From an uncultured Rhodospirillaceae bacterium (GTDB lineage Bacteria; Pseudomonadota; Alphaproteobacteria; UBA8366), in contig CAJWLM010000008.1 in NCBI GenBank assembly GCA_913043025.1, positions 39,306-103,305 on the forward strand: a stretch of DNA of 64,000 nucleotides. Reading direction: 5' to 3'. Made by a program: the position numbers and the translations under genes. The notes under the pieces were generated by a model, which saw nothing but the letters and a program-made list of their open reading frames with translations, did not search any database and was not told the DNA's origin. Within the stretch, counting starts at the first letter, position 1. Each line of letters starts with the position of its first letter. This document shows, in pieces, positions 53,710 to 62,638 of this stretch.

Positions 53710-55416
53710 CTAAGTGAATTGAACAATCAACAGCAGCATTAATAGGAGTATTACCCATACAACCATAGTGCCAGCACTCGTTGCCCGTGCCGCAAGACTA
53801 TTAGGGCCACTGTGATATCGAACTTGTTCAATAACGTATTTTACACACTCCACCATCATGCTACGGAGCGCTAATGCTGCCAAACTTATGCTGTGTATAA
53901 CATTCCTCACGATCTCACTGCCGGCGCGACGATAAAACCAATCAAAATCAAGTACAGTCGATCTTAATTCTGGCGGATAAAGGCCGGTTTTTTGAAGAAC
54001 GGCAAAAGCGAGAGCTGAAAACATGAGAAGCTGAAGCATAGTCACCACATGCGTCGTGGTATAGGGCACATAATCTACCGGATAAGGCAAAATATCATAA
54101 AGCGGTTGCGGGTAGACCCCAATTCCAAAACATAATATCGCAGCGATACCCATAGCAATTAACATATTCATGGGAGCCTCTTTGGGCCGTTTTCCAGAAT
54201 CATGAGCAAAAAACGCGAAAAAAGGGATTTTTATTCCAGAGTGATGGAATACGCCCGCTGAGGCAAAGAGCAGCAAGAGAAATGGAAACAGATAATCTTG
54301 ATCAGCAGCTGCAGTTAAAATCATTGATTTAGTAACGAACCCAGAAAACAATGGAAAACCAGAGATTGCTGCCGATCCAACGATACAGAAGCCAGTGGTC
54401 CAAGGCATCGATTTATAAAGGCCGCCCAGTTCAGAACCCTTTGCAGTTCCCGCACGATATAGCACAGCACCCATCGCCATAAACAGAAGAGCTTTATATA
54501 AAATATGTGCAAAGGCATGACTGACAGCACCGTTGATAGCTAATTGAGTGCCAATACCTACACCGGCAACCATGAACCCCAGCTGATTATTTAGTGAGTA
54601 GGCAAGAACACGCCGTAAATCATTTTCTATAACTGCAAAAAATATTGGGAATGCTGTCATGGCTGCCCCAATCCAAACAAGCAACTCCGTTCCGGGATAG
54701 CCACGCGCTAATGCATAAATAGCCAACTTGGTTGTAAATGCCGAAAGAAAAACAGTACCCGTTGGAGATGCTTCTGGATAGGCATCCTGAAGCCAATTGT
54801 GCATGAGAGGGAACGCACATTTGATACCAAAGGCCAAAAAAATAAGGACACCCCCTGGTCCATCCAAACCAATGAAGTTAAAAGCTAACGAGCCTGTCGT
54901 TTGAGCCTGCACCACAGCTCCCGCAGCTAACAGCACGCCTGAGAAAATTTGTATGATGAGATAACGCATGCCAGCGTCATATGCTCTATTGCTACCTCCA
55001 GCCCATATTATAAATACGGAGGTGAGTGCAGTAAGCTCCCAGTATACAAATAGTGTTATAAGGTCGCCCGCGAAAGCCGCCCCGATGGCAGCGCCTGCAT
55101 ACGCCAGCGCTGCTGTTTGCTCCATTACATCCTTAGAATGCAACGAGAAAAGAGTAGCAACAAATGCCGCAATGTAAAAAATAATACCAAAAACAAAGGA
55201 AAGAGCATCGATGCGAACATGAATGAGCTCGTAACCGAATAATGATATTTCCCCAAAACTTCCGTGTTCAAGTGAAAGAAGGCTCAAGAGTCCTACAATA
55301 GGCAACAGGAGTAAGTACCCTTTCCTTGGCCAACCTGGCGGGATTAGCGGAACAAGGAAGGCGCCTATTATCAGTATTAACCCGGGAGGAATATCAACGA
55401 TCATAATAATCTTCAT
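53710..55416 (-). CDS. Mrp-like antiporter, large NuoL/M/N-family subunit (MrpD/A-like, third copy)
   Basis: 568 aa polytopic protein of the Proton_antipo_M type, with motifs such as FVYWELTALTS and H.W..DAYPEA. Confidence 0.8.
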   Translation of the reverse strand: MKIIMIVDIPPGLILIIGAFLVPLIPPGWPRKGYLLLLPIVGLLSLLSLEHGSFGEISLFGYELIHVRIDALSFVFGIIFYIAAFVATLFSLHSKDVMEQTAALAYAGAAIGAAFAGDLITLFVYWELTALTSVFIIWAGGSNRAYDAGMRYLIIQIFSGVLLAAGAVVQAQTTGSLAFNFIGLDGPGGVLIFLAFGIKCAFPLMHNWLQDAYPEASPTGTVFLSAFTTKLAIYALARGYPGTELLVWIGAAMTAFPIFFAVIENDLRRVLAYSLNNQLGFMVAGVGIGTQLAINGAVSHAFAHILYKALLFMAMGAVLYRAGTAKGSELGGLYKSMPWTTGFCIVGSAAISGFPLFSGFVTKSMILTAAADQDYLFPFLLLLFASAGVFHHSGIKIPFFAFFAHDSGKRPKEAPMNMLIAMGIAAILCFGIGVYPQPLYDILPYPVDYVPYTTTHVVTMLQLLMFSALAFAVLQKTGLYPPELRSTVLDFDWFYRRAGSEIVRNVIHSISLAALALRSMMVECVKYVIEQVRYHSGPNSLAARATSAGTMVVWVILLLMLLLIVQFT

Positions 55417-55822
55417 CCCGTATTAAAAATTTCCTCAGTTCCCTCGAAGCGAGCACCAATAGAAAAGAAAGACCAAACCCAAATATGCCGAAAAAGCCAA
55501 AAATCCCTTCGAATTCGTAGTGGGTATGCTTGTGATAAAATGCGTCACTCACCACAAGCGCAATACAAATAAATACGAGCACATAGAAAATTTTATTTAC
55601 GTTTCTAGCGTCATCTAACCAATAATGCTTTTTGTTAGGGACCTTTTTTTTCAATCTCGCACTCCGGATGGCTTTATCCGGAGAACTTGGTGTTTTTTTA
55701 ATACCCTTTTTTACCCCATCATTAGATATCTTTTTGGGAGGAAATTTTCTCTTTTTAGATGCTGTTGATTTCTTTAACACAGCATTTTTACTGATTGCTT
55801 TTTTGATCGGCTTTTTTGCCAT
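55394..55822 (-). CDS. Lysine-rich N-terminal tail + 2-TM membrane protein embedded in the Mrp-like operon (unknown function)
   Basis: 142 aa. The first 65 residues contain 22 Lys (MAKKPIKKAISKNAVLKKSTASKKRKFPPKK..). Two hydrophobic segments follow (IFYVLVFICIALVV and IFGFFGIFGFGLSFLLVLA). Its 3' end overlaps the next gene by 23 nt. Confidence 0.6.
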   Translation of the reverse strand: MAKKPIKKAISKNAVLKKSTASKKRKFPPKKISNDGVKKGIKKTPSSPDKAIRSARLKKKVPNKKHYWLDDARNVNKIFYVLVFICIALVVSDAFYHKHTHYEFEGIFGFFGIFGFGLSFLLVLASRELRKFLIRDEDYYDR

Positions 55823-55845
55823 GTTCGATCCCTAACGCCCCCAAA

Positions 55846-57327
55846 TCACATGCCGGCAATCGGAGAGAGAAACCCCGCAAGATCATCAGCTATAAAGAAA
55901 GCTCCGATCGTCAAAACGCTTGCCGTACAAATACCTATTAAACACAATGCTGGCGCCTCCTGTATACCCGTGCCCCCACCCTTACTTTGTACCGATGCTT
56001 TTGTTTTAGACCCACTATAAAAAGCCCGAAGCACTATCGGCAGAAGATACCCTGCCGAAAGAAGAGAACTGCCCATCCACACAAACATAAAAATTAAATG
56101 ATCCGACTCAGCTGTGCCCATCATTAGATACCATTTTGACAGAGCCCCACCCGCAGGTGGAATACCTATAATCCCTAGGCACCCTATCAGGAAACAGCCC
56201 ATTGTTATTGGCATTCGGCGTCCGATTCCATCCAGTTGACTAATTTCAGTCTTATGCGAAGCTACCAAAATTGCACCAGCGCAGAAAAAAAGTGTTATCT
56301 TAGCGGTGGCATGCATCACGATGTGCATACTAGCCCCAACAATGCCAGCACCAGTTGCCATCGCCGCTCCAAGTACTATGTACGAAAGTTGGCTTATAGT
56401 TGAATAAGCTAGTCTCGCCTTAAGGTTATCTTTACGAAATGCTATTACAGCCGATATTAGCAGAGTAGCACCTGCAATTATTGCCAAGTATAGAGAGCCG
56501 TCAGATCCATTTAAGGTCTCTAATCCAAACAAATATACGATCACTTTTATAACTGTGAAAACGCCCGCTTTCACAACTGCTACAGCATGCAGAAGTGCGC
56601 TTACGGGAGTTGGCGCTACCATTGCAGCTGGCAACCAACGATGAAATGGCATTAACGCTGCTTTGCCCACACCAAACATAAAAAGTAACAGCAAGATCGT
56701 GATGATAGGCCCGTCAGCCTTTCCGGCAAGGATGCCTCCCTCTGTGAAATCGAGAGTGCCAGTCAAAACATATGTCCAAACAATAGCAAATAATTGAAAT
56801 CCTATTGATGTCCCAATCAATATTCCAAGATAAATTCGACCCGCTTTTTTTGTTTCGTCAGTCCCATGATGAGTAACGAGTGGGAAAGTACACAACGTAA
56901 GAACTTCGTAAAAAATGAAGAGCGTCAACATATTTCCAGCGAATGCAACGCCGATAGCTGCCGCAATGGAGATCGCAAAAAAGAAATAAAACTTTGTTTG
57001 GTTTACCTCATGGTGGCCGCGCATGTATCCGATTGCATATATCGATGTAACTATCCAGAGAAAGCTCGCGACACACGCAAAGATCATACCCAAGGGTTCA
57101 ATTGTAAAGGCAATAGACAACCCCGGCAGCATCTCTAACAGGGTAATACTCGGACGAAACCCAGATGCAACCGTTGGCACTAAATGCGCCACACAAAGAA
57201 ACAAAAATCCCGCAGTGCATAATGTTACTGCCTCGCGTAAATTGGGATAGGACCCCGCTAGAACTATAAATGCAGCCCCGACCAAAGGTACAGAGAGGCA
57301 GGCGTAGATCAGAGTCTCGGCACTCAT
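55846..57327 (-). CDS. mrpD: Mrp-like antiporter subunit D (NuoM/N family, second copy)
   Basis: 493 aa polytopic protein of the Proton_antipo_M family. A 4-nt overlap links it to the upstream gene. Confidence 0.85.
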   Translation of the reverse strand: MSAETLIYACLSVPLVGAAFIVLAGSYPNLREAVTLCTAGFLFLCVAHLVPTVASGFRPSITLLEMLPGLSIAFTIEPLGMIFACVASFLWIVTSIYAIGYMRGHHEVNQTKFYFFFAISIAAAIGVAFAGNMLTLFIFYEVLTLCTFPLVTHHGTDETKKAGRIYLGILIGTSIGFQLFAIVWTYVLTGTLDFTEGGILAGKADGPIITILLLLFMFGVGKAALMPFHRWLPAAMVAPTPVSALLHAVAVVKAGVFTVIKVIVYLFGLETLNGSDGSLYLAIIAGATLLISAVIAFRKDNLKARLAYSTISQLSYIVLGAAMATGAGIVGASMHIVMHATAKITLFFCAGAILVASHKTEISQLDGIGRRMPITMGCFLIGCLGIIGIPPAGGALSKWYLMMGTAESDHLIFMFVWMGSSLLSAGYLLPIVLRAFYSGSKTKASVQSKGGGTGIQEAPALCLIGICTASVLTIGAFFIADDLAGFLSPIAGM

Positions 57328-58799
57328 TGCGCAACTCCAGTCATTAAAAAGTTAGCAGCAGCCATGGCAATATCTATAGTCCGGCTGGCATCGATGCCAA
57401 AATAAATACTCGCCCCTGTTAAAATAAATAATGGTATCAACATGCTTAATGGCGGTTCAGACATTACTGCGGCACGCTTTGGCGGTGCGCGGAAATACGC
57501 AACCTCAACTACCCTCCAAATGTAAATCACTGCTAGCAAGGAACTCACTAAAATCAAAACAGCTATAAGCCACATATCCTTTTCAAGCGCTGCCGACACA
57601 AGATACCACTTGCTAATGAAGCCGGCCGTCAACGGCACTCCTATAAGTCCGAGCCCCGCAACCACAAAACAACCAGTTGTAATAGGTATGCGTTTACCAA
57701 TACCAGCCATATCATCAAGACGCACAGAGGCAATCCGAAAAAACATGCCTCCTACAGCCATAAATAGTGCCCCCTTTACCAATGCATGATTAAAAAGATG
57801 GATGATACCGCCAGCTAACCCAGTGGTAGTAATAAAACTTATTCCAAGGACCATATAACCTATTTGAGCTATGCTAGAGTATGCCAACATTCGTTTTATG
57901 TTGGTTTGGTATATGGCGACTAAAGAACCAACAAACATTGCTGCCACCGATAAAATCATAAGAATTTCACCAATGACAAACAGCGGATCACCGCCGAAAA
58001 CCGTAAATATCATGCGGAGAAGCGCATACACTGCTACCTTTGTCGCCGTAGCGGCTAAGAAGACCGTAACAACTGACGGGGCAAAAGTGTATGCATTTGG
58101 AAGCCACATATGTAACGGGAAAATAGCAAGCTTTAAACTAAGCCCAACAACGATAAAGGCGATGGCAACCTGGATTGTACGTGTATCCTCGACCGCTGGT
58201 ATGCGATTAGCTAGATCTGACATATTAAGGGTACCGGTCATCATATACATCATGCCAACCCCTATGATGTAGAACGTCGCACCCACTGTTCCCATAATAA
58301 GATAACGATAAGCAGCCGTGAGTGACCGGCGATATCTCCCCATACTGATTAAAACATATGAGGAAAGCGATGATATCTCTAGAAAGACAAATAAATTGAA
58401 AGCATCGCCGGTAACGGCAATGCCTAATAGACCGCAAAGGCATAGCAGATACATCGTATAGAATAAGTATATTCGTGCCTCAGGAATTTCAGAAGAGACA
58501 CTTGCATGCGCGTAAGGAAGTACCACGGCGCCAATCGAGGAGACAATCACCAATAAAAATGCACTCAAAAGATCAATCTTATATTCAATACCAATTGGAG
58601 CTGCCCAATCACCTATAGGATAAGAAATCGCCCCGGTAGAAAGCACCTTTGACAACAGACAGATAGCAATGCCGAGGCAGCACCATGTCACTATGGTCGC
58701 CCACAACCAGGCCCAATCGGAGCGTCTAAGAAGTAGGCAAATAGGAGCAGCAATAAGGGGCAGAACAACTTGCAGAGCTGGGAGATTGAGCATCAACAT
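57324..58799 (-). CDS. mrpD: Mrp-like antiporter subunit D (NuoM/N family, first copy)
   Basis: 491 aa polytopic protein of the Proton_antipo_M family. A TGATG overlap links it to mrpC. Confidence 0.85.
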   Translation of the reverse strand: MLMLNLPALQVVLPLIAAPICLLLRRSDWAWLWATIVTWCCLGIAICLLSKVLSTGAISYPIGDWAAPIGIEYKIDLLSAFLLVIVSSIGAVVLPYAHASVSSEIPEARIYLFYTMYLLCLCGLLGIAVTGDAFNLFVFLEISSLSSYVLISMGRYRRSLTAAYRYLIMGTVGATFYIIGVGMMYMMTGTLNMSDLANRIPAVEDTRTIQVAIAFIVVGLSLKLAIFPLHMWLPNAYTFAPSVVTVFLAATATKVAVYALLRMIFTVFGGDPLFVIGEILMILSVAAMFVGSLVAIYQTNIKRMLAYSSIAQIGYMVLGISFITTTGLAGGIIHLFNHALVKGALFMAVGGMFFRIASVRLDDMAGIGKRIPITTGCFVVAGLGLIGVPLTAGFISKWYLVSAALEKDMWLIAVLILVSSLLAVIYIWRVVEVAYFRAPPKRAAVMSEPPLSMLIPLFILTGASIYFGIDASRTIDIAMAAANFLMTGVAQ

Positions 58800-59170
58800 C
58801 AGAAATGTTTCTCCCGTCGCCGTTCCTCAGCTTCAATCTCATCCTCTTCAATCGACCCATACGAGTCTCGAATACGCACAACCAATGCGAGAGCAAGAGC
58901 GGTCGTTGCGACACCAACCACGATTGCTGTTAAAATTAGAACATGTGGCAGCGGGTTTGAATAAACGGTGATGCCCTCCGCAATTATCGGAGCACTACCA
59001 TCCTCTACTTTACTCATAGATATGTAGAAGATAAACACCGACACCTGAAAAATATTCAGCCCAACCACTTTTTTGATCAGGTTGTGTTGTGCCATAACGA
59101 TATAAAATCCAATCATCATCAGAACGATAAAAATCCAGTAATTATACAAACCAGCGAATTGGTCCATCAT
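58799..59170 (-). CDS. mrpC: Mrp antiporter subunit C (NuoK-like)
   Basis: 123 aa, 3 TM. Contains LIKKVVGLNIFQVSVFIFYIS and NPLPHVLILTAIVVGVATTALALAL. Confidence 0.85.
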   Translation of the reverse strand: MMDQFAGLYNYWIFIVLMMIGFYIVMAQHNLIKKVVGLNIFQVSVFIFYISMSKVEDGSAPIIAEGITVYSNPLPHVLILTAIVVGVATTALALALVVRIRDSYGSIEEDEIEAEERRREKHF

Positions 59171-59631
59171 TCGGAATCATCCTGATTGGCAAATACGTAA
59201 AATATAGTGATCATAGCAGCAGCTACAGTCACCCCTACTCCTAATTCAATCAACAAAATACCCAAATGCTGGCCAGCAATAGGGTCTTGTAATAAAACCG
59301 AATAATTAAGATATCGCCCCCCTAGAAGCATACCTACTATGCCTACTCCTGCATAAAGTAGGAGGCCCGCTGCTAAAAAAAATCTCCTTGCCCCGGGGGA
59401 CAATACTTTCATCCCAACGTCAACGCCGAAAATTAGAGCATAAAGTATAAACGCACTTGCGAATATGACACCAGCCTGGAACCCCCCTCCAGGGCCAAAA
59501 TCTCCGTGAAATTGAACGTATAAAGCAAACAGCATTATCAACGGTATCAAAAGTTTTGAACAGACGCGTAAAACTTCCTTGTGCTGCATTTCACGCCGCC
59601 TGCGTTTGCTCATAACTCTTAAACTTTTCAT
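59167..59631 (-). CDS. mrpB: Mrp antiporter subunit B (MnhB domain)
   Basis: 154 aa. The motif HGDFGPGGGFQAGVIFA is typical of the MnhB domain. Confidence 0.85.
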   Translation of the reverse strand: MKSLRVMSKRRRREMQHKEVLRVCSKLLIPLIMLFALYVQFHGDFGPGGGFQAGVIFASAFILYALIFGVDVGMKVLSPGARRFFLAAGLLLYAGVGIVGMLLGGRYLNYSVLLQDPIAGQHLGILLIELGVGVTVAAAMITIFYVFANQDDSE

Positions 59632-60251
59632 GGGCGTTCTCCAGAGCGTGTTCTCTTAATCACCCCATTTTTTTTCTTACGGCGACGCCCTATCAAAGCC
59701 AAAACCCCCGCGGCAGCCGTGAAAACAACTGTCACCTCTCCCAAGGTATCATAACCTCGGTAGCTCGCTAGTATCGAGGTTACTACGTTTGGCATTCCGG
59801 TCTGTTTTGGACCACGTTCGATATATTCTGGGGCCACATGCTGATGGATGGGGGCCATAGGGTCGCCATAACGCGGCATATCTAAAGTACCATAAATGAG
59901 CGCTGCACCCACCACTACAACTACAGCCAAATGGGGCCAAGACACCCCTGGGTCTGCTTTCTCATGCGAGGTCGTGAGAGCTAAAGTACCTAACATTAAA
60001 ACCGTTGCTATGCCGGCGCCAACTGCCGCCTCAGTAAAAGCAACGTCAACCGCATCCATTACGACATACAGTACCGCAGCATTGAGGCTAAAGCTACCTG
60101 AAAGCATAACTACTGCGAAGAGATTACGTAGCCAAAGCAAGGCCAAAGCGCTCACGACCATGAAGGTAAGGAGTGCGTAGAAGATCAAATTTTCTATGAC
60201 GATCCTCCCCTTTTTTTCCTTCGACCAGTTTTTGGGTTTATTCCACCCCAA
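59628..60251 (-). CDS. Mrp antiporter MnhB-N-terminal-type subunit (DUF4040 / MbhD-E-like)
   Basis: 207 aa. Contains DAVDVAFTEAAVGAGIATVL and NVVTSILASYRGYDTLGEVTVV. The start is either TTG 60251 (58-nt overlap with mrpG) or TTG 60188. Confidence 0.8.
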   Translation of the reverse strand: MGWNKPKNWSKEKKGRIVIENLIFYALLTFMVVSALALLWLRNLFAVVMLSGSFSLNAAVLYVVMDAVDVAFTEAAVGAGIATVLMLGTLALTTSHEKADPGVSWPHLAVVVVVGAALIYGTLDMPRYGDPMAPIHQHVAPEYIERGPKQTGMPNVVTSILASYRGYDTLGEVTVVFTAAAGVLALIGRRRKKKNGVIKRTRSGERP

Positions 60252-60550
60252 AGTGCCGCTTGTGCCAATGCATGGGTTGTTGTCGGATTTGTAATGAATA
60301 AGAATAAGGCGATCAACAGCAACTTACCACAGACTAAAAGAGCTGCTTTTGTCGATGGCAAAAGTTCGAACGCCTGAATTGCTAGTCCTGAGAATAATAA
60401 TAATATCCCGAGCGTTTCAATAATGCTTCCTGCATGCATCCGGCTGAATAAGTCTGGCAGCCGAACAAGTCCAAAAGCGCCGATTAAACAGAATATTGCA
60501 CCTGAACCTATCAGTGCCCAGCTAGTTATATCTAATGCTGACATACTCAT
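60194..60550 (-). CDS. mrpG: Mrp antiporter subunit G
   Basis: 118 aa. IGAFGLVRLPDLFSRMHAGSIIETLG matches the PhaG/MnhG signature. Confidence 0.85.
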   Translation of the reverse strand: MSMSALDITSWALIGSGAIFCLIGAFGLVRLPDLFSRMHAGSIIETLGILLLFSGLAIQAFELLPSTKAALLVCGKLLLIALFLFITNPTTTHALAQAALWGGINPKTGRRKKRGGSS

Positions 60551-60834
60551 ATATCATCAACCTCTTCAACATTTGAGGTCCTTCCCAAGCGGGCAAACTT
60601 TATAAATTTTGTTACCGCAATCGTGGCTACAAAATTGATAAGTGCATAAACCATAGCAATATCTAAAAATTCCGGCCTGCCATCAAGAAAACCAAACAAT
60701 GCTATCAAAATCACACTGAATGTTCCAAATGTGTTGACCGCAAGAATTCGGTCATAAACTGTTGGCCCTTTAACCGCTCTAAAAAGTACTAATGCCATAG
60801 ATACTAAGGTAAGTGCAGCAGCAAATTCAAACAT
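60547..60834 (-). CDS. mrpF: Mrp antiporter subunit F
   Basis: 95 aa. FRAVKGPTVYDRILAVNTFGT matches the MrpF/PhaF signature. Confidence 0.85.
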   Translation of the reverse strand: MFEFAAALTLVSMALVLFRAVKGPTVYDRILAVNTFGTFSVILIALFGFLDGRPEFLDIAMVYALINFVATIAVTKFIKFARLGRTSNVEEVDDI

Positions 60835-61324
60835 TCCCTGCTCCTTTTCCGCTAGTCTCGAGTTTTGTGACTTTACTGTCCATTTCTCCAGTCTTTACGC
60901 CCGCAGCAGCCGCATTTGTTAATGCGTGAACACTCATTTCTCCGTCCTCAACATCAACTGTAACTGTTCCGGGGGTCAGCGTTATTGAATGCGAATAAAC
61001 AACATTTCCCACCTCACTTTGCTGTGAGGCCTGGATCGTAAATATATGGGGCTGAATCTCCATGCGCGGTGAAATTATAATCTTAGCAACGACCAAGTTT
61101 GCCTTCACAATTTCCCAAAGGAGCCACGGAAAATAAAGAATCATTCCAAAACCGAGGTGACTTGGATGCCCTTCGTGATCGATTACATCCATTCTGTGCG
61201 CAACAAAGAGCACTGCCCCGATTGATATTACACCCAGTAAAAGGATCAACGTGTTATCGTATATACCCGAAAGCATAAGCCACAACACCGCAAGCGTAAT
61301 ACCAGAACCAATTTTATGAGGCAA
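60827..61324 (-). CDS. mrpE: Mrp antiporter subunit E
   Basis: 165 aa. It shows the MnhE layout: two N-terminal TM helices, then ANLVVAKIIISP and SITLTPGTVTVDV. Confidence 0.8.
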   Translation of the reverse strand: MPHKIGSGITLAVLWLMLSGIYDNTLILLLGVISIGAVLFVAHRMDVIDHEGHPSHLGFGMILYFPWLLWEIVKANLVVAKIIISPRMEIQPHIFTIQASQQSEVGNVVYSHSITLTPGTVTVDVEDGEMSVHALTNAAAAGVKTGEMDSKVTKLETSGKGAGNV

Positions 61325-61516: not shown

Positions 61517-61978
61517 ATGGATATGACCGGAGAATATCGCATTCCAGCCAGCCGCGAAGAGGTATGGAAAGCATTAAATGATATAGAAATATTAAAGCAA
61601 TGTATTCCCGGATGCGAGGAAATTGAAAAGCACTCCGAAACTGAGTTAAGTGCAAAGGTAACAGCTAAAGTGGGACCGGTAAAAGCCAAATTTAATGGAA
61701 AAGTAACATTATCTGACATGGATCCTCCCAATGGCTATACAATTACAGGTGAAGGCACAGGAGGAGCGGCAGGATTTGCAAAGGGTGGCGCTTCAGTAAT
61801 TCTGAAAGCGGAAGGACCCGAAACTATTCTGTCATATGAAGCAAAGGCTGCAGTAGGGGGAAAACTAGCACAGATTGGCAGTCGATTAATTGACTCAACG
61901 TCTAAAAAACTTGCCAATCAGTTTTTTAGTAATTTTGCAAAAGTGCTAGGTGCCGATGAAGAAAAAGACGAGGATTGA
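61517..61978 (+). CDS. coxG: CoxG-type SRPBCC protein (carbon monoxide dehydrogenase subunit G family)
   Basis: 153 aa. Contains GEYRIPASREEVWKALNDIEILKQCIPGCEE and GPVKAKFNGKVTLSD..GGAAGFAKGGA, the CoxG family pattern. Confidence 0.85.
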   Translation: MDMTGEYRIPASREEVWKALNDIEILKQCIPGCEEIEKHSETELSAKVTAKVGPVKAKFNGKVTLSDMDPPNGYTITGEGTGGAAGFAKGGASVILKAEGPETILSYEAKAAVGGKLAQIGSRLIDSTSKKLANQFFSNFAKVLGADEEKDED

Positions 61979-61980
61979 AT

Positions 61981-62103
61981 ATGGGGTCTAAAAATATTCA
62001 ACATGTAAATGACAGCGCTGAGGGTCTGAGACCTGCAGCGTGGATTCCAATACTCATATGTGTAGCCCTATTGATGCCGCTCTGCTTCGTGTTATTTGGT
62101 TAA
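61981..62103 (+). CDS. 40-aa single-TM small ORF between coxG and coxS (below the ORF-track cutoff)
   Basis: My translation is MGSKNIQHVNDSAEGLRPAAWIPILICVALLMPLCFVLFG. The ATG begins 2 nt after the coxG stop codon. The hydrophobic C-terminal half is long enough for one TM helix. Confidence 0.4.
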   Translation: MGSKNIQHVNDSAEGLRPAAWIPILICVALLMPLCFVLFG

Positions 62104-62170
62104 GTGTACTTAACACTGTTAATTGATAAGAAAACCAGCATTTCGAGATAACAAGGAGGGAGAACAAAAA

Positions 62171-62638
62171 ATGCCAAGCGTAACCATGAAGGTTAATGGC
62201 AAAAATGTAAATGCCGAGGTCGAGAATCGTACTTTGCTCGTACAATATTTGCGAGATCATCTCAACATGACAGGTACTCACGTTGGCTGTGATACGAGTC
62301 AATGTGGTTGTTGCGTCGTGCATGTAAATGGGTCGTCGGTAAAAAGTTGTACAATGCTTGCAGTCCAGGCTGAAGGTGCAGATGTGGTTACAATTGAAGG
62401 CCTTGCTGATGGAGAAGTTTTACATCCTATGCAGGCTGCGTTTCGTGAACACCATGGTCTACAGTGTGGGTTTTGTACGCCGGGCATGGTTATGAGTGCA
62501 GTGGATCTTGCAAAAGAAAACCCAGACCCCTCGGAAACAGAAATTAGAGAATGGCTTGAAGGTAACATCTGCCGCTGTACCGGTTATCATAACATTGTAA
62601 AAGCAATTGCAGCTGGTACAAAGAACATGCAGGGTTAA
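62171..62638 (+). CDS. coxS: Molybdenum hydroxylase small subunit, [2Fe-2S]-binding (CoxS type)
   Basis: Contains [21 protein letters not shown] and [15 protein letters not shown]. The ATG at 62171 is preceded by AAGGAGGG. Confidence 0.9.

Follow-up and report, generated by a model that had tools for sequence, protein, structure and literature searches.

A conserved two-helix membrane protein with a lysine-rich N-terminus, encoded between antiporter genes of an Mrp-type operon

Mrp antiporters and complex I have proton-pumping modules in common. In the stretch of DNA analysed here (64 kb in length, called the window below), an Mrp-type operon holds a 142-aa ORF between its second and third large antiporter genes. 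The initial annotation described this ORF, here called gene X, as having 22 lysines in its first 65 residues, followed by two hydrophobic helices and an acidic end, and as overlapping the next gene by 23 nt; all of this holds for 55394..55822. This raises the question of whether the ORF is a gene, to which system its protein belongs, and whether the lysine-rich N-terminus is as histone-like as was first suggested.

The operon and its small membrane protein

Searches with Pfam and NCBIfam give the gene order MrpE-F-G-(MbhD/E-like)-MnhB-C-D-D-X-D, which includes three Proton_antipo_M subunits, and the nine neighbouring proteins of gene X all match curated Mrp models. The features are:

53710..55416, minus strand: D3, a PRK12668-type MrpD-like subunit of 568 aa, which as read from its sequence has an amphipathic C-terminal segment and a TM helix at the very end (NF009310, 714 bits, above cutoff)
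55394..55416, minus strand: 23-nt overlap of the gene X end with the D3 start, with presumed translational coupling (X stop codon 55394-55396; D3 start 55416)
55394..55822, minus strand: gene X, a small membrane protein of 142 aa with a K-rich tail and a conserved 2-TM core (ATG start; 57 homologs)
55846..57327, minus strand: D2, an MrpA/NuoL-N-like antiporter subunit of 493 aa, upstream neighbour of gene X (Proton_antipo_N and Proton_antipo_M)
57324..61324, minus strand: span of the remaining operon, with the genes below, all assigned by Pfam and NCBIfam
57324-58799, minus strand: D1
58799-59170, minus strand: MrpC
59167-59631, minus strand: MnhB
59628-60251, minus strand: MbhD/E-like
60194-60550, minus strand: MrpG
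60547-60834, minus strand: MrpF
60827-61324, minus strand: MrpE

Group-3 Mrp (CPA3) operons contain all Mrp subunit types in an irregular gene order or with duplications, for instance of MrpD or MrpB (Ito et al. 2017, PMC5703873), and the window order E-F-G-MbhD/E-B-C-D-D-X-D falls under this definition. An 'MrpEFGBBCDD' operon has been described in the Solemya velum symbiont (PMC4287430). The window differs in its small 2-TM protein, as neither PMC5703873 nor PMC4287430 describes such a protein between D genes. A scan for promoters and terminators gave no more signals than in shuffled sequence, and no internal one close to gene X. Within gene X, the following parts can be distinguished:

55628..55822, minus strand: tail, codons 1-65, Lys-rich, predicted to be disordered and cytoplasmic (composition, open frame, structure model)
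55538..55609, minus strand: helix 1 (TM1), residues 72-95, with conserved C86 and D93 (AlphaFold2 helix 72-95)
55505..55537, minus strand: loop YHKHTHYEFEG, residues 96-106, with conserved K98, H99 and E105 (conservation), probably periplasmic
55445..55504, minus strand: TM2, about residues 107-126, motif GFxGxFGF (AlphaFold2 helix 110-137)
55397..55444, minus strand: C-terminal helix, putatively cytoplasmic, motif (S)RELRKxLxRDEDYYDR (conservation)

Codons 1-65 encode 22 K and 3 R versus 2 D and no E, and the 66 residues up to the conserved Trp have a net charge of +23; the tail is 34% Lys. In all six frames of the window the tail is the sole stretch with at least 10 K in 40 residues, of which it holds 15. 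An AlphaFold2 model based on a 37-sequence alignment is of moderate confidence (mean pLDDT 61); residues 1-67 are without regular structure and helices are placed at 72-95, 103-106 and 110-137. The tail is read as a disordered cytoplasmic polycation. The charge distribution, together with the cytoplasmic-type Cys4 N-terminal domains of two family members (P0108 and P0133), suggests a periplasmic loop and a cytoplasmic N-terminus.

The core family and its gene neighbourhood

The C-terminal ~80 residues of gene X belong to a large family that has neither a name nor a curated Pfam or NCBIfam model. A profile search with E<=1e-3 finds 2068 clusters at 50% identity, the nearest representative being P0002 (E 5e-38), and among the matches listed almost all are 73-130 aa long, typically 80-100 aa. 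The pattern [LV][MK]RDEDYY occurs in at least 547 genomes, which belong to Alpha- and Gammaproteobacteria, Myxococcota, Gemmatimonadota, Planctomycetota and Binatia. Across 211 sequences, conservation reaches 83% at C86, 92% at D93, 97% at F110, 99% at G115 and 96% at F116, and near the C-terminus 99% at R130, 96% at R135, 95% at E137, 95% at Y139 and 98% at Y140. With W68, K98, H99 and E105 these make up the invariant-like core residues. The gene X protein, whose C-terminus is RDEDYYDR, has all positions of the family: WLDD, C86, D93, K98-H99, E105, GFxGxFGF, R130 and the terminal RDEDYY(D/E).

No Pfam or NCBIfam model matches the gene X protein at E<=0.01, and none of the MrpA-G models does, so the claim that it corresponds to no curated Mrp subunit stands; it extends to the 37 alignment members, which at E<=1 give no consistent family and only scattered weak matches to unrelated membrane families. 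One of these, to ESSS (E 0.07, one member of 37), was dismissed as noise. A profile search of the PDB returned nothing relevant, with the V-ATPase K subunit on top (E 0.037 over 24 residues), and Foldseek against the PDB with the moderate-confidence model gave nothing below E = 6. The lack of a curated family match is what could be said for a spurious ORF that lies between two real genes by chance. However, the core has a dN/dS of 0.05-0.1 with differences concentrated at third codon positions, and the homologous clusters and the invariant position in 80 loci also refute this explanation, whose probability is negligible. Gene X is real, and it sits in an Mrp-type operon, as originally annotated.

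The neighbourhood of the family is very regular. A gene X homolog lies directly upstream of a PRK12668-type D3 in 80/80 loci, and D2 normally precedes it. Where the pair has been split off from the remaining operon (loci L007 and L057), X and D3 stay together. With its breadth over genomes, this synteny agrees with the proposal that the TM part is a conserved accessory subunit of such loci. A projected overlap of X and D3 is seen in 74 of the 80 loci (two being mis-paired tblastn matches) with a median of -23 nt, in agreement with the translational coupling of gene X with the third D subunit that had been proposed from the window. The association of the core is with the D2/D3 pair and not with Mrp generally.

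The same triplet occurs in a second type of enzyme. In green complex I, two MrpD-like subunits replace NuoL, as stated in the passages of PMC9040806 and PMC7415380 that cite Degli Esposti & Martinez-Romero 2016, and the rhizobial MrpD2 carries a lateral helix (HL) (PMC9040806); PMC9040806 makes no mention of the small ORF. In Ensifer pT173d the gene order is nuoJ-K-[MrpD-like 487 aa]-[84-aa hypothetical]-[antiporter D 586 aa]-nuoM-N-A-B..., and the gene of the 84-aa protein lies between both antiporter genes and overlaps them. The C-terminus of this protein reads MRREDYYD, and the X profile matches the protein at a probability of 97.9% (E 3e-13). The window D2 is 48% identical to the Ensifer 487-aa MrpD-family protein, and D3 is 50% identical to the 586-aa subunit. 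A tblastn search of the window X core against the plasmid collection gave no match, and the rhizobial link was reached via D3. An X homolog is carried by 99 rhizobial replicons, and its counts per genus come close to those of D3 in the same genera (67/18/11/2 for X versus 69/18/11/2 for D3); the converse question, if D3-type genes occur without X, was covered for these rhizobial replicons. The likeness covers the D2-X-D3 gene triplet, an MrpD-like pair orthologous to the rhizobial one with a C-terminal segment on its second subunit, and an X homolog between the two. The differences lie in context and in the N-terminus: the rhizobial triplet is found inside a nuo operon (nuoJ-K...nuoM-N-A-G) where it replaces nuoL, whereas the window has Mrp E/F/G/B/C and no nuo genes, and the rhizobial X has a 20-residue N-terminus without a Lys-rich tail.

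The lysine-rich tail

The Lys-rich tail is present in seven sequences, which come from a small marine group of Rhodospirillaceae-type relatives; its only carriers are the window, L001, L004, P0002-5 and P0011. Most N-termini of the family are 10-25 residues long and acidic or polar. Other lineages bear acidic, His-rich or zinc-ribbon appendages at the N-terminal site, the zinc-ribbon-like Cys4 N-termini being those of P0108 and P0133, and the divergent member P0157 has a second, independent K-rich tail. Between P0005, which has the tail, and the tail-less P0006, the cores are 92% identical and the flanks MAKQP...PAD(E/T)KTYWLDD are common to both. Long N-termini were also seen in tblastn matches from Competibacter, Defluviicoccus and a Planctomycetales MAG; these result from reading on into the 3' end of D2 in a different frame, and the real starts give short N-termini. 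The tail is a lineage-specific, recent add-on, dispensable for the function of the core. This agrees with the more cautious reading in the initial annotation, that of a lineage-specific low-complexity extension of a small accessory subunit, since the core is conserved whereas only a handful of close relatives have the tail.

Before any function is considered, it has to be asked if the tail is translated. Two features are relevant:

55823..55845, minus strand: spacer of 23 nt between the D2 stop and the ATG; a conserved SD-like TAGGGA lies 6 nt upstream of the start codon (sequence context)
55652..55654, minus strand: codon 57, TTG, at which internal initiation could yield an 86-aa form lacking the tail (GGAG 7 nt upstream in the window)

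It is conceivable that the true start is TTG or GTG at codon 57, giving an 86-aa protein, and that the Lys-rich ORF is an A-rich leader that is open by chance. The typical family length fits this, as do the start-capable codon 57 (TTG in the window, GTG in P0002-4) and a tail dN/dS of 0.3-1.2 without codon-position periodicity or third-position bias, a pattern that untranslated DNA would also give. Against it, P0005 and L004 have no start-capable codon at that position and ATG-1 is their sole in-frame ATG, GTG or TTG. The start context TGA..TAGGGATCGAAC-ATG-GCA-AAA-AAG-CC, which follows the D2 stop directly, is conserved between the window and P0002-4 and similar in P0005 and P0011, and the short forms P0006 and P0007 begin with the same MAKQP. 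Frame 1 is open in 7/7 tail-bearing sequences, with zero indels and zero stops, and shuffles of the A-rich ones are open in 0.3-0.9% of trials (for the window, with 47% A in its tail DNA, mononucleotide shuffling leaves frame 1 stop-free in 0.8%). The positive charge is also kept against neutral expectation, as described below. An untranslated tail is accordingly quite improbable, and the conserved ATG and SD context, the open frame and the two relatives without an alternative start indicate that the tail is very probably translated. As codon 57 could serve as a start both in the window and in the three relatives closest to it, a tail-less isoform, or translation of the tail-less form only, is possible in this organism.

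The net charge of the tail is +21 to +26 in 7/7 tail-bearing sequences despite differing nucleotide composition. For the four tails that are co-linear it is +21 to +24, versus a mean of 13-16 in a simulation of neutral substitution (P 0.001-0.013) that assumes uniform site mutation and kappa = 2, so that the argument from charge would be weaker under an A-biased mutation spectrum. The tail appears to be selected for positive charge and not for sequence. No tandem repeats were found in the tail DNA, and simple slippage of a unit is therefore not evident.

Lys-rich 'histone H1-like' disordered tails are known from several bacterial proteins, such as Chlamydia Hc1/Hc2, Pseudomonas AlgP, PhaF and mycobacterial HupB. 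By analogy the gene X tail would resemble them as a basic, Lys-dominated, low-complexity and disordered segment joined to a folded domain, and it could be a dedicated histone-like module that binds polyanions and, by tethering DNA, RNA or polyphosphate to the antiporter, serves regulation or localisation. The Lys content, charge and predicted disorder, the selection on charge and the independent K-rich tail of P0157 would all suit such a module. However, the tail is attached to a membrane hairpin and not to a DNA-binding fold, it has no match to histone or H1-like families in Pfam, and it lacks repeat periodicity such as AKKA or KKAA units. Its residues are almost free of constraint, it has been gained or lost between relatives with near-identical cores, and a membrane-proximal polycation would meet anionic lipids first. 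The different appendages found at the same site in other lineages point to a permissive site and not to a conserved function. A dedicated polyanion-binding module is thus improbable, and of the first description as 'histone-tail-like', the resemblance in composition stands, while family membership, repeat structure and residue-level conservation do not support it.

A proposed role at the antiporter pair

The most likely role of gene X in the D2/D3 module is that of a small subunit so far unrecognised, or else of an assembly partner. The fuller reading, which is considered probable, is that of a real inner-membrane protein that serves the D2/D3 pair in this way and has a Lys-rich tail that is a translated, charge-selected lineage add-on with an electrostatic role. 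The core would consist of two TM helices with a short His/Lys/Glu loop between them, followed by a cytoplasmic helix ending in RDEDYY. Its role would be structural, as a small subunit of the antiporter-like pair, or that of a partner dedicated to the assembly of this pair, in the D2-X-D3 triplet that group-3 Mrp operons including the window share with green complex I, and it would be made together with D3 through translational coupling. The 65-residue N-terminus would be an in-frame expansion of the normally short cytoplasmic N-terminus, and may act electrostatically on, or recruit, anionic phospholipid head groups or other cytoplasmic polyanions close to where the complex ends distally. A likeness is offered by the small supernumerary TM subunits of complex I-type enzymes, as short TM proteins genetically tied to antiporter-like subunits, with the difference that gene X has no detectable sequence or fold homology to any solved chain.

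Whether such a protein stays in the mature complex can be argued in both directions. An assembly factor or membrane chaperone for D3 that is no stoichiometric subunit would agree with the link to the D3 gene alone, seen in the overlap and in the co-travel when the operon is split, and with the lack of a sequence homolog in any solved Mrp or complex I structure. On the other hand, the charged loop and the C-terminal motif are at 95-99% identity and X is kept in two different enzyme contexts, which fits a permanent interface, although neither observation is decisive; a pure assembly role is judged unlikely. A more far-reaching version, which is less likely than not, has a portable D2-X-D3 'double antiporter' module that extends group-3 Mrp and replaces NuoL in green complex I, with X as its obligate subunit in stoichiometric amount. 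The Asp-Lys-His-Glu loop and the RDEDYY helix would then contribute to the D2/D3 interface or to an ion path, and in this marine lineage the function of the +23 tail would be to adjust the local surface potential of the membrane or to draw lipid to the distal pump.

The Lys-rich tail is of narrower interest, as a natural example of a disordered appendage on a membrane protein that appears to have been recently gained and selected for charge. Green complex I, 2M complex I and the Manganitrophus complexes are examples of variants that have additional pump subunits, and such variants serve in arguments on pumping stoichiometry and reverse electron flow. A strongly conserved small protein that accompanies the MrpD-like pair throughout is missing from the curated family models and from the descriptions in PMC9040806 and the group-3 Mrp texts, so that models of the structure and bioenergetics of these enzymes may be incomplete. 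For testing, cultured hosts are available in Sinorhizobium meliloti (pSymA), Nisaea denitrificans and Thalassobaculum.

Gene X and its operon

The small minus-strand gene X lies between D2 and D3, the second and third large antiporter subunits of the Mrp-type operon. Its stop codon falls 23 nt within the D3 gene, and residues 1-65 include 22 Lys and 3 Arg, with just 2 Asp and no Glu, so that the ORF, lysine count and overlap described in the initial annotation are confirmed. Within 40 residues the tail has 15 Lys; elsewhere in the 64-kb window, whatever the frame, the count stays below 10. The tail DNA is 47% A, a composition that leaves a stop-free frame in only 0.8% of shuffles. In an AlphaFold2 model built from 37 homologs (mean pLDDT 61), residues 1-67 are without regular structure and helices occupy 72-95, 103-106 and 110-137.

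Features of gene X and two rhizobial homologs
55394..55822, minus strand: X, 142 residues, coordinates as initially annotated
X start: ATG 23 nt after the D2 stop, TAGGGA six nt upstream of the ATG
55652-55654, minus strand: X codon 57, start-capable, TTG in the window, GTG in homologs P0002-4
L088 8763-9017: X homolog, Ensifer canadensis pT173d
L093 6001-6252: X homolog, S. meliloti 1021 pSymA

By Pfam and NCBIfam, the operon encodes MrpE, F, G, an MbhD/E-like protein, MnhB, MrpC and three Proton_antipo_M proteins, of which D2 also has a NuoL/MrpA-type N-terminal domain; D3 is a PRK12668 equivalog (714 bits). As listed, the MbhD/E-like ORF (59628-60251, minus strand) begins with a TTG and shares 58 nt with mrpG; its Pfam matches start at residue 30, and translation probably initiates at a more 3' codon. 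Directly 3' of D3 on the same strand is a DUF192 gene (PF02643; 53137-53661, minus strand), which may be functionally linked to the operon; a homolog occurs within 10 kb in about 21 of 80 related loci, as a rule 5' of mrpE and in divergent orientation. Divergent CoxG-like (PF06240) and CoxS-like [2Fe-2S] (PF01799) genes upstream of the operon (61517-62638, plus strand) suggest an adjoining CO or xanthine dehydrogenase-family cluster.

The core family and its association with D3

X has no match in Pfam, in NCBIfam, or in the PDB by sequence or by fold, and those public records that name its homologs call them 'hypothetical protein'. An initial homology search with X returned 57 proteins, most of them 82-105 aa long and matching only the last ~80 query residues, with the consensus YWLDDxRNVxKI...C.ALV.AD.FYHKHxHFxFEGxFGFFGIFGF...VLLVLAAKELRKxLMRDEDYYDR. 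An exhaustive profile search extended this to 2068 clusters (50% identity) at E<=1e-3, 942 of them at E<=1e-10; among the 150 clusters listed out of 2068, almost all are 73-130 aa long. Between the window and three co-linear relatives, core dN/dS is 0.05-0.1, with changes mostly at third codon positions.

Conservation of core positions over 211 sequences
D93: 92%
K/R98: 97%
H99: 88%
E105: 82%
F110: 97%
G115: 99%
F116: 96%
R130: 99%
R135: 96%
E137: 95%
Y139: 95%
Y140: 98%

When one genome per species is scanned, the core is encoded in at least 547 genomes, including Rhodospirillaceae-type MAGs, Nisaea, Thalassobaculum, Magnetovibrio, Defluviicoccus and SAR116, and further Competibacter, Contendobacter, Myxococcota, Gemmatimonadota, Planctomycetota and Binatia. 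Across the 80 loci retained, X always sits directly 5' of the D3 ortholog, and the genes nearly always run E-F-G-MbhD/E-B-C-D1-D2-X-D3. The projected spacing between X and D3 has a median value of -23 nt; 74 of the 80 loci give a negative value (an overlap), and two of these values come from mis-paired tblastn hits. In two alphaproteobacterial MAGs (loci L007 and L057), X-D3 is a separate unit that converges with E-F-G-B-B-C-D1-D2; since the pair stands apart from the remaining operon here, X travels with D3.

In some members other sequences are attached to the core. Homologs P0108 and P0133 have a Cys4 zinc-ribbon-like segment before it, suggesting a cytoplasmic N-terminus and modular appendages; P0047, P0051 and P0209 have His-rich extensions after RDEDYY (e.g. 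...HGHGHNHEAGH and HHGHHEHGHSEHGHH) that may bind metal; and some members end in acidic C-termini. This variety points to the termini as permissive cytoplasmic attachment points. From the charge distribution and the cytoplasmic-type N-terminal domains in other members, we infer an N-in/C-in topology, with the His/Lys/Glu loop outside.

The lysine-rich tail

Most homologs have an N-terminus of 10-25 acidic or polar residues, and Lys-rich tails of this kind occur only in the window, loci L001 and L004, and proteins P0002-5 and P0011. This supports the fallback claim of the initial annotation, a small accessory subunit with an extension particular to one lineage: the core at D3 is widespread, and the tail is found in a few relatives only. 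The cores of P0005, which has a tail, and P0006, whose N-terminus is 21 residues long, are 92% identical, and the two share the flanks MAKQP... and ...PAD(E/T)KTYWLDD. Within a conserved short N-terminus, therefore, either the tail was inserted in frame or it was deleted where it is lacking. The divergent P0157 (L094 114-488), in the same gene arrangement, has an independent K-rich tail at its N-terminus, with 15 K and 4 R over 50 residues, so that polycationic tails have more than one origin.

The ATG/TAGGGA context is kept across the tail-bearing sequences, and none of the seven has a stop in frame 1, against up to 7 in each of the two remaining forward frames. In P0005 and L004 the first ATG is the only in-frame ATG/GTG/TTG before the core. 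A tail-less isoform is possible in the window, where codon 57, a conserved start-capable position immediately ahead of the core, has GGAG 7 nt 5' of it, and both long and short forms may be made. A 67-aa antisense ORF over the tail (55632-55835, plus strand) was rejected as evidence for a gene: it mirrors the poly-Lys run (AAA/AAG read as TTT/CTT). The matching frame is open in most relatives too.

Tail dN/dS is 0.3-1.2, without codon periodicity. Net charge nevertheless stays at +21 to +26 in 7 of 7 sequences, even where T drops from 18% to 5-8%. The four co-linear sequences are at +21 to +24, whereas a neutral-substitution simulation that ignores mutation bias would bring them down to roughly +13 to +16 (P 0.001-0.013 per pair under the same simulation). 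The tail is read as a lineage-specific, charge-selected, disordered cytoplasmic polycation. A specific histone-like function is not supported, though it keeps a small probability, and the histone-like, polyanion-binding reading put forward in the initial annotation stays a hypothesis. The most economical role would be electrostatic attraction to anionic lipids, or to other polyanions, beside the distal pump.

Rhizobial green complex I and the role of X

D3 homologs about 50% identical are found on rhizobial megaplasmids. As an example, Ensifer canadensis pT173d has the order nuoJ, nuoK, MrpD-family (487 aa), an 84-aa hypothetical, 'Na+/H+ antiporter subunit D' (586 aa), nuoM, nuoN, nuoA-G; its antiporter pair shares 48% (D2) and 50% (D3) identity with the window proteins. 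The 84-aa protein ends in MRREDYYD and matches the X profile (hhalign probability 97.9%, E 3e-13). An X homolog is present on 99 replicons (Sinorhizobium 67, Rhizobium 18, Ensifer 11, Phyllobacterium 2, Pararhizobium 1), S. meliloti 1021 pSymA among them, and D3 counts are nearly equal (69, 18, 11 and 2 for the first four genera). The small gene is unlisted in many rhizobial records (PLSDB gene tables).

The Ensifer operon is what the literature calls 'green complex I', where NuoL is replaced by two MrpD-like subunits with a lateral helix on MrpD2; pairs related to this one occur in Ca. Manganitrophus complexes (PMC9040806). That paper makes no mention of a small ORF between the MrpD-like genes. 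Up-regulation of green complex I in symbiosis is reported (PMC7415380).

The best reading of X is as a small subunit of the D2/D3 module or a partner in its assembly. Beyond the original claim about the tail, the more interesting result is that a widespread small protein with no curated family marks the MrpD-like pair in group-3 Mrp and green complex I alike.
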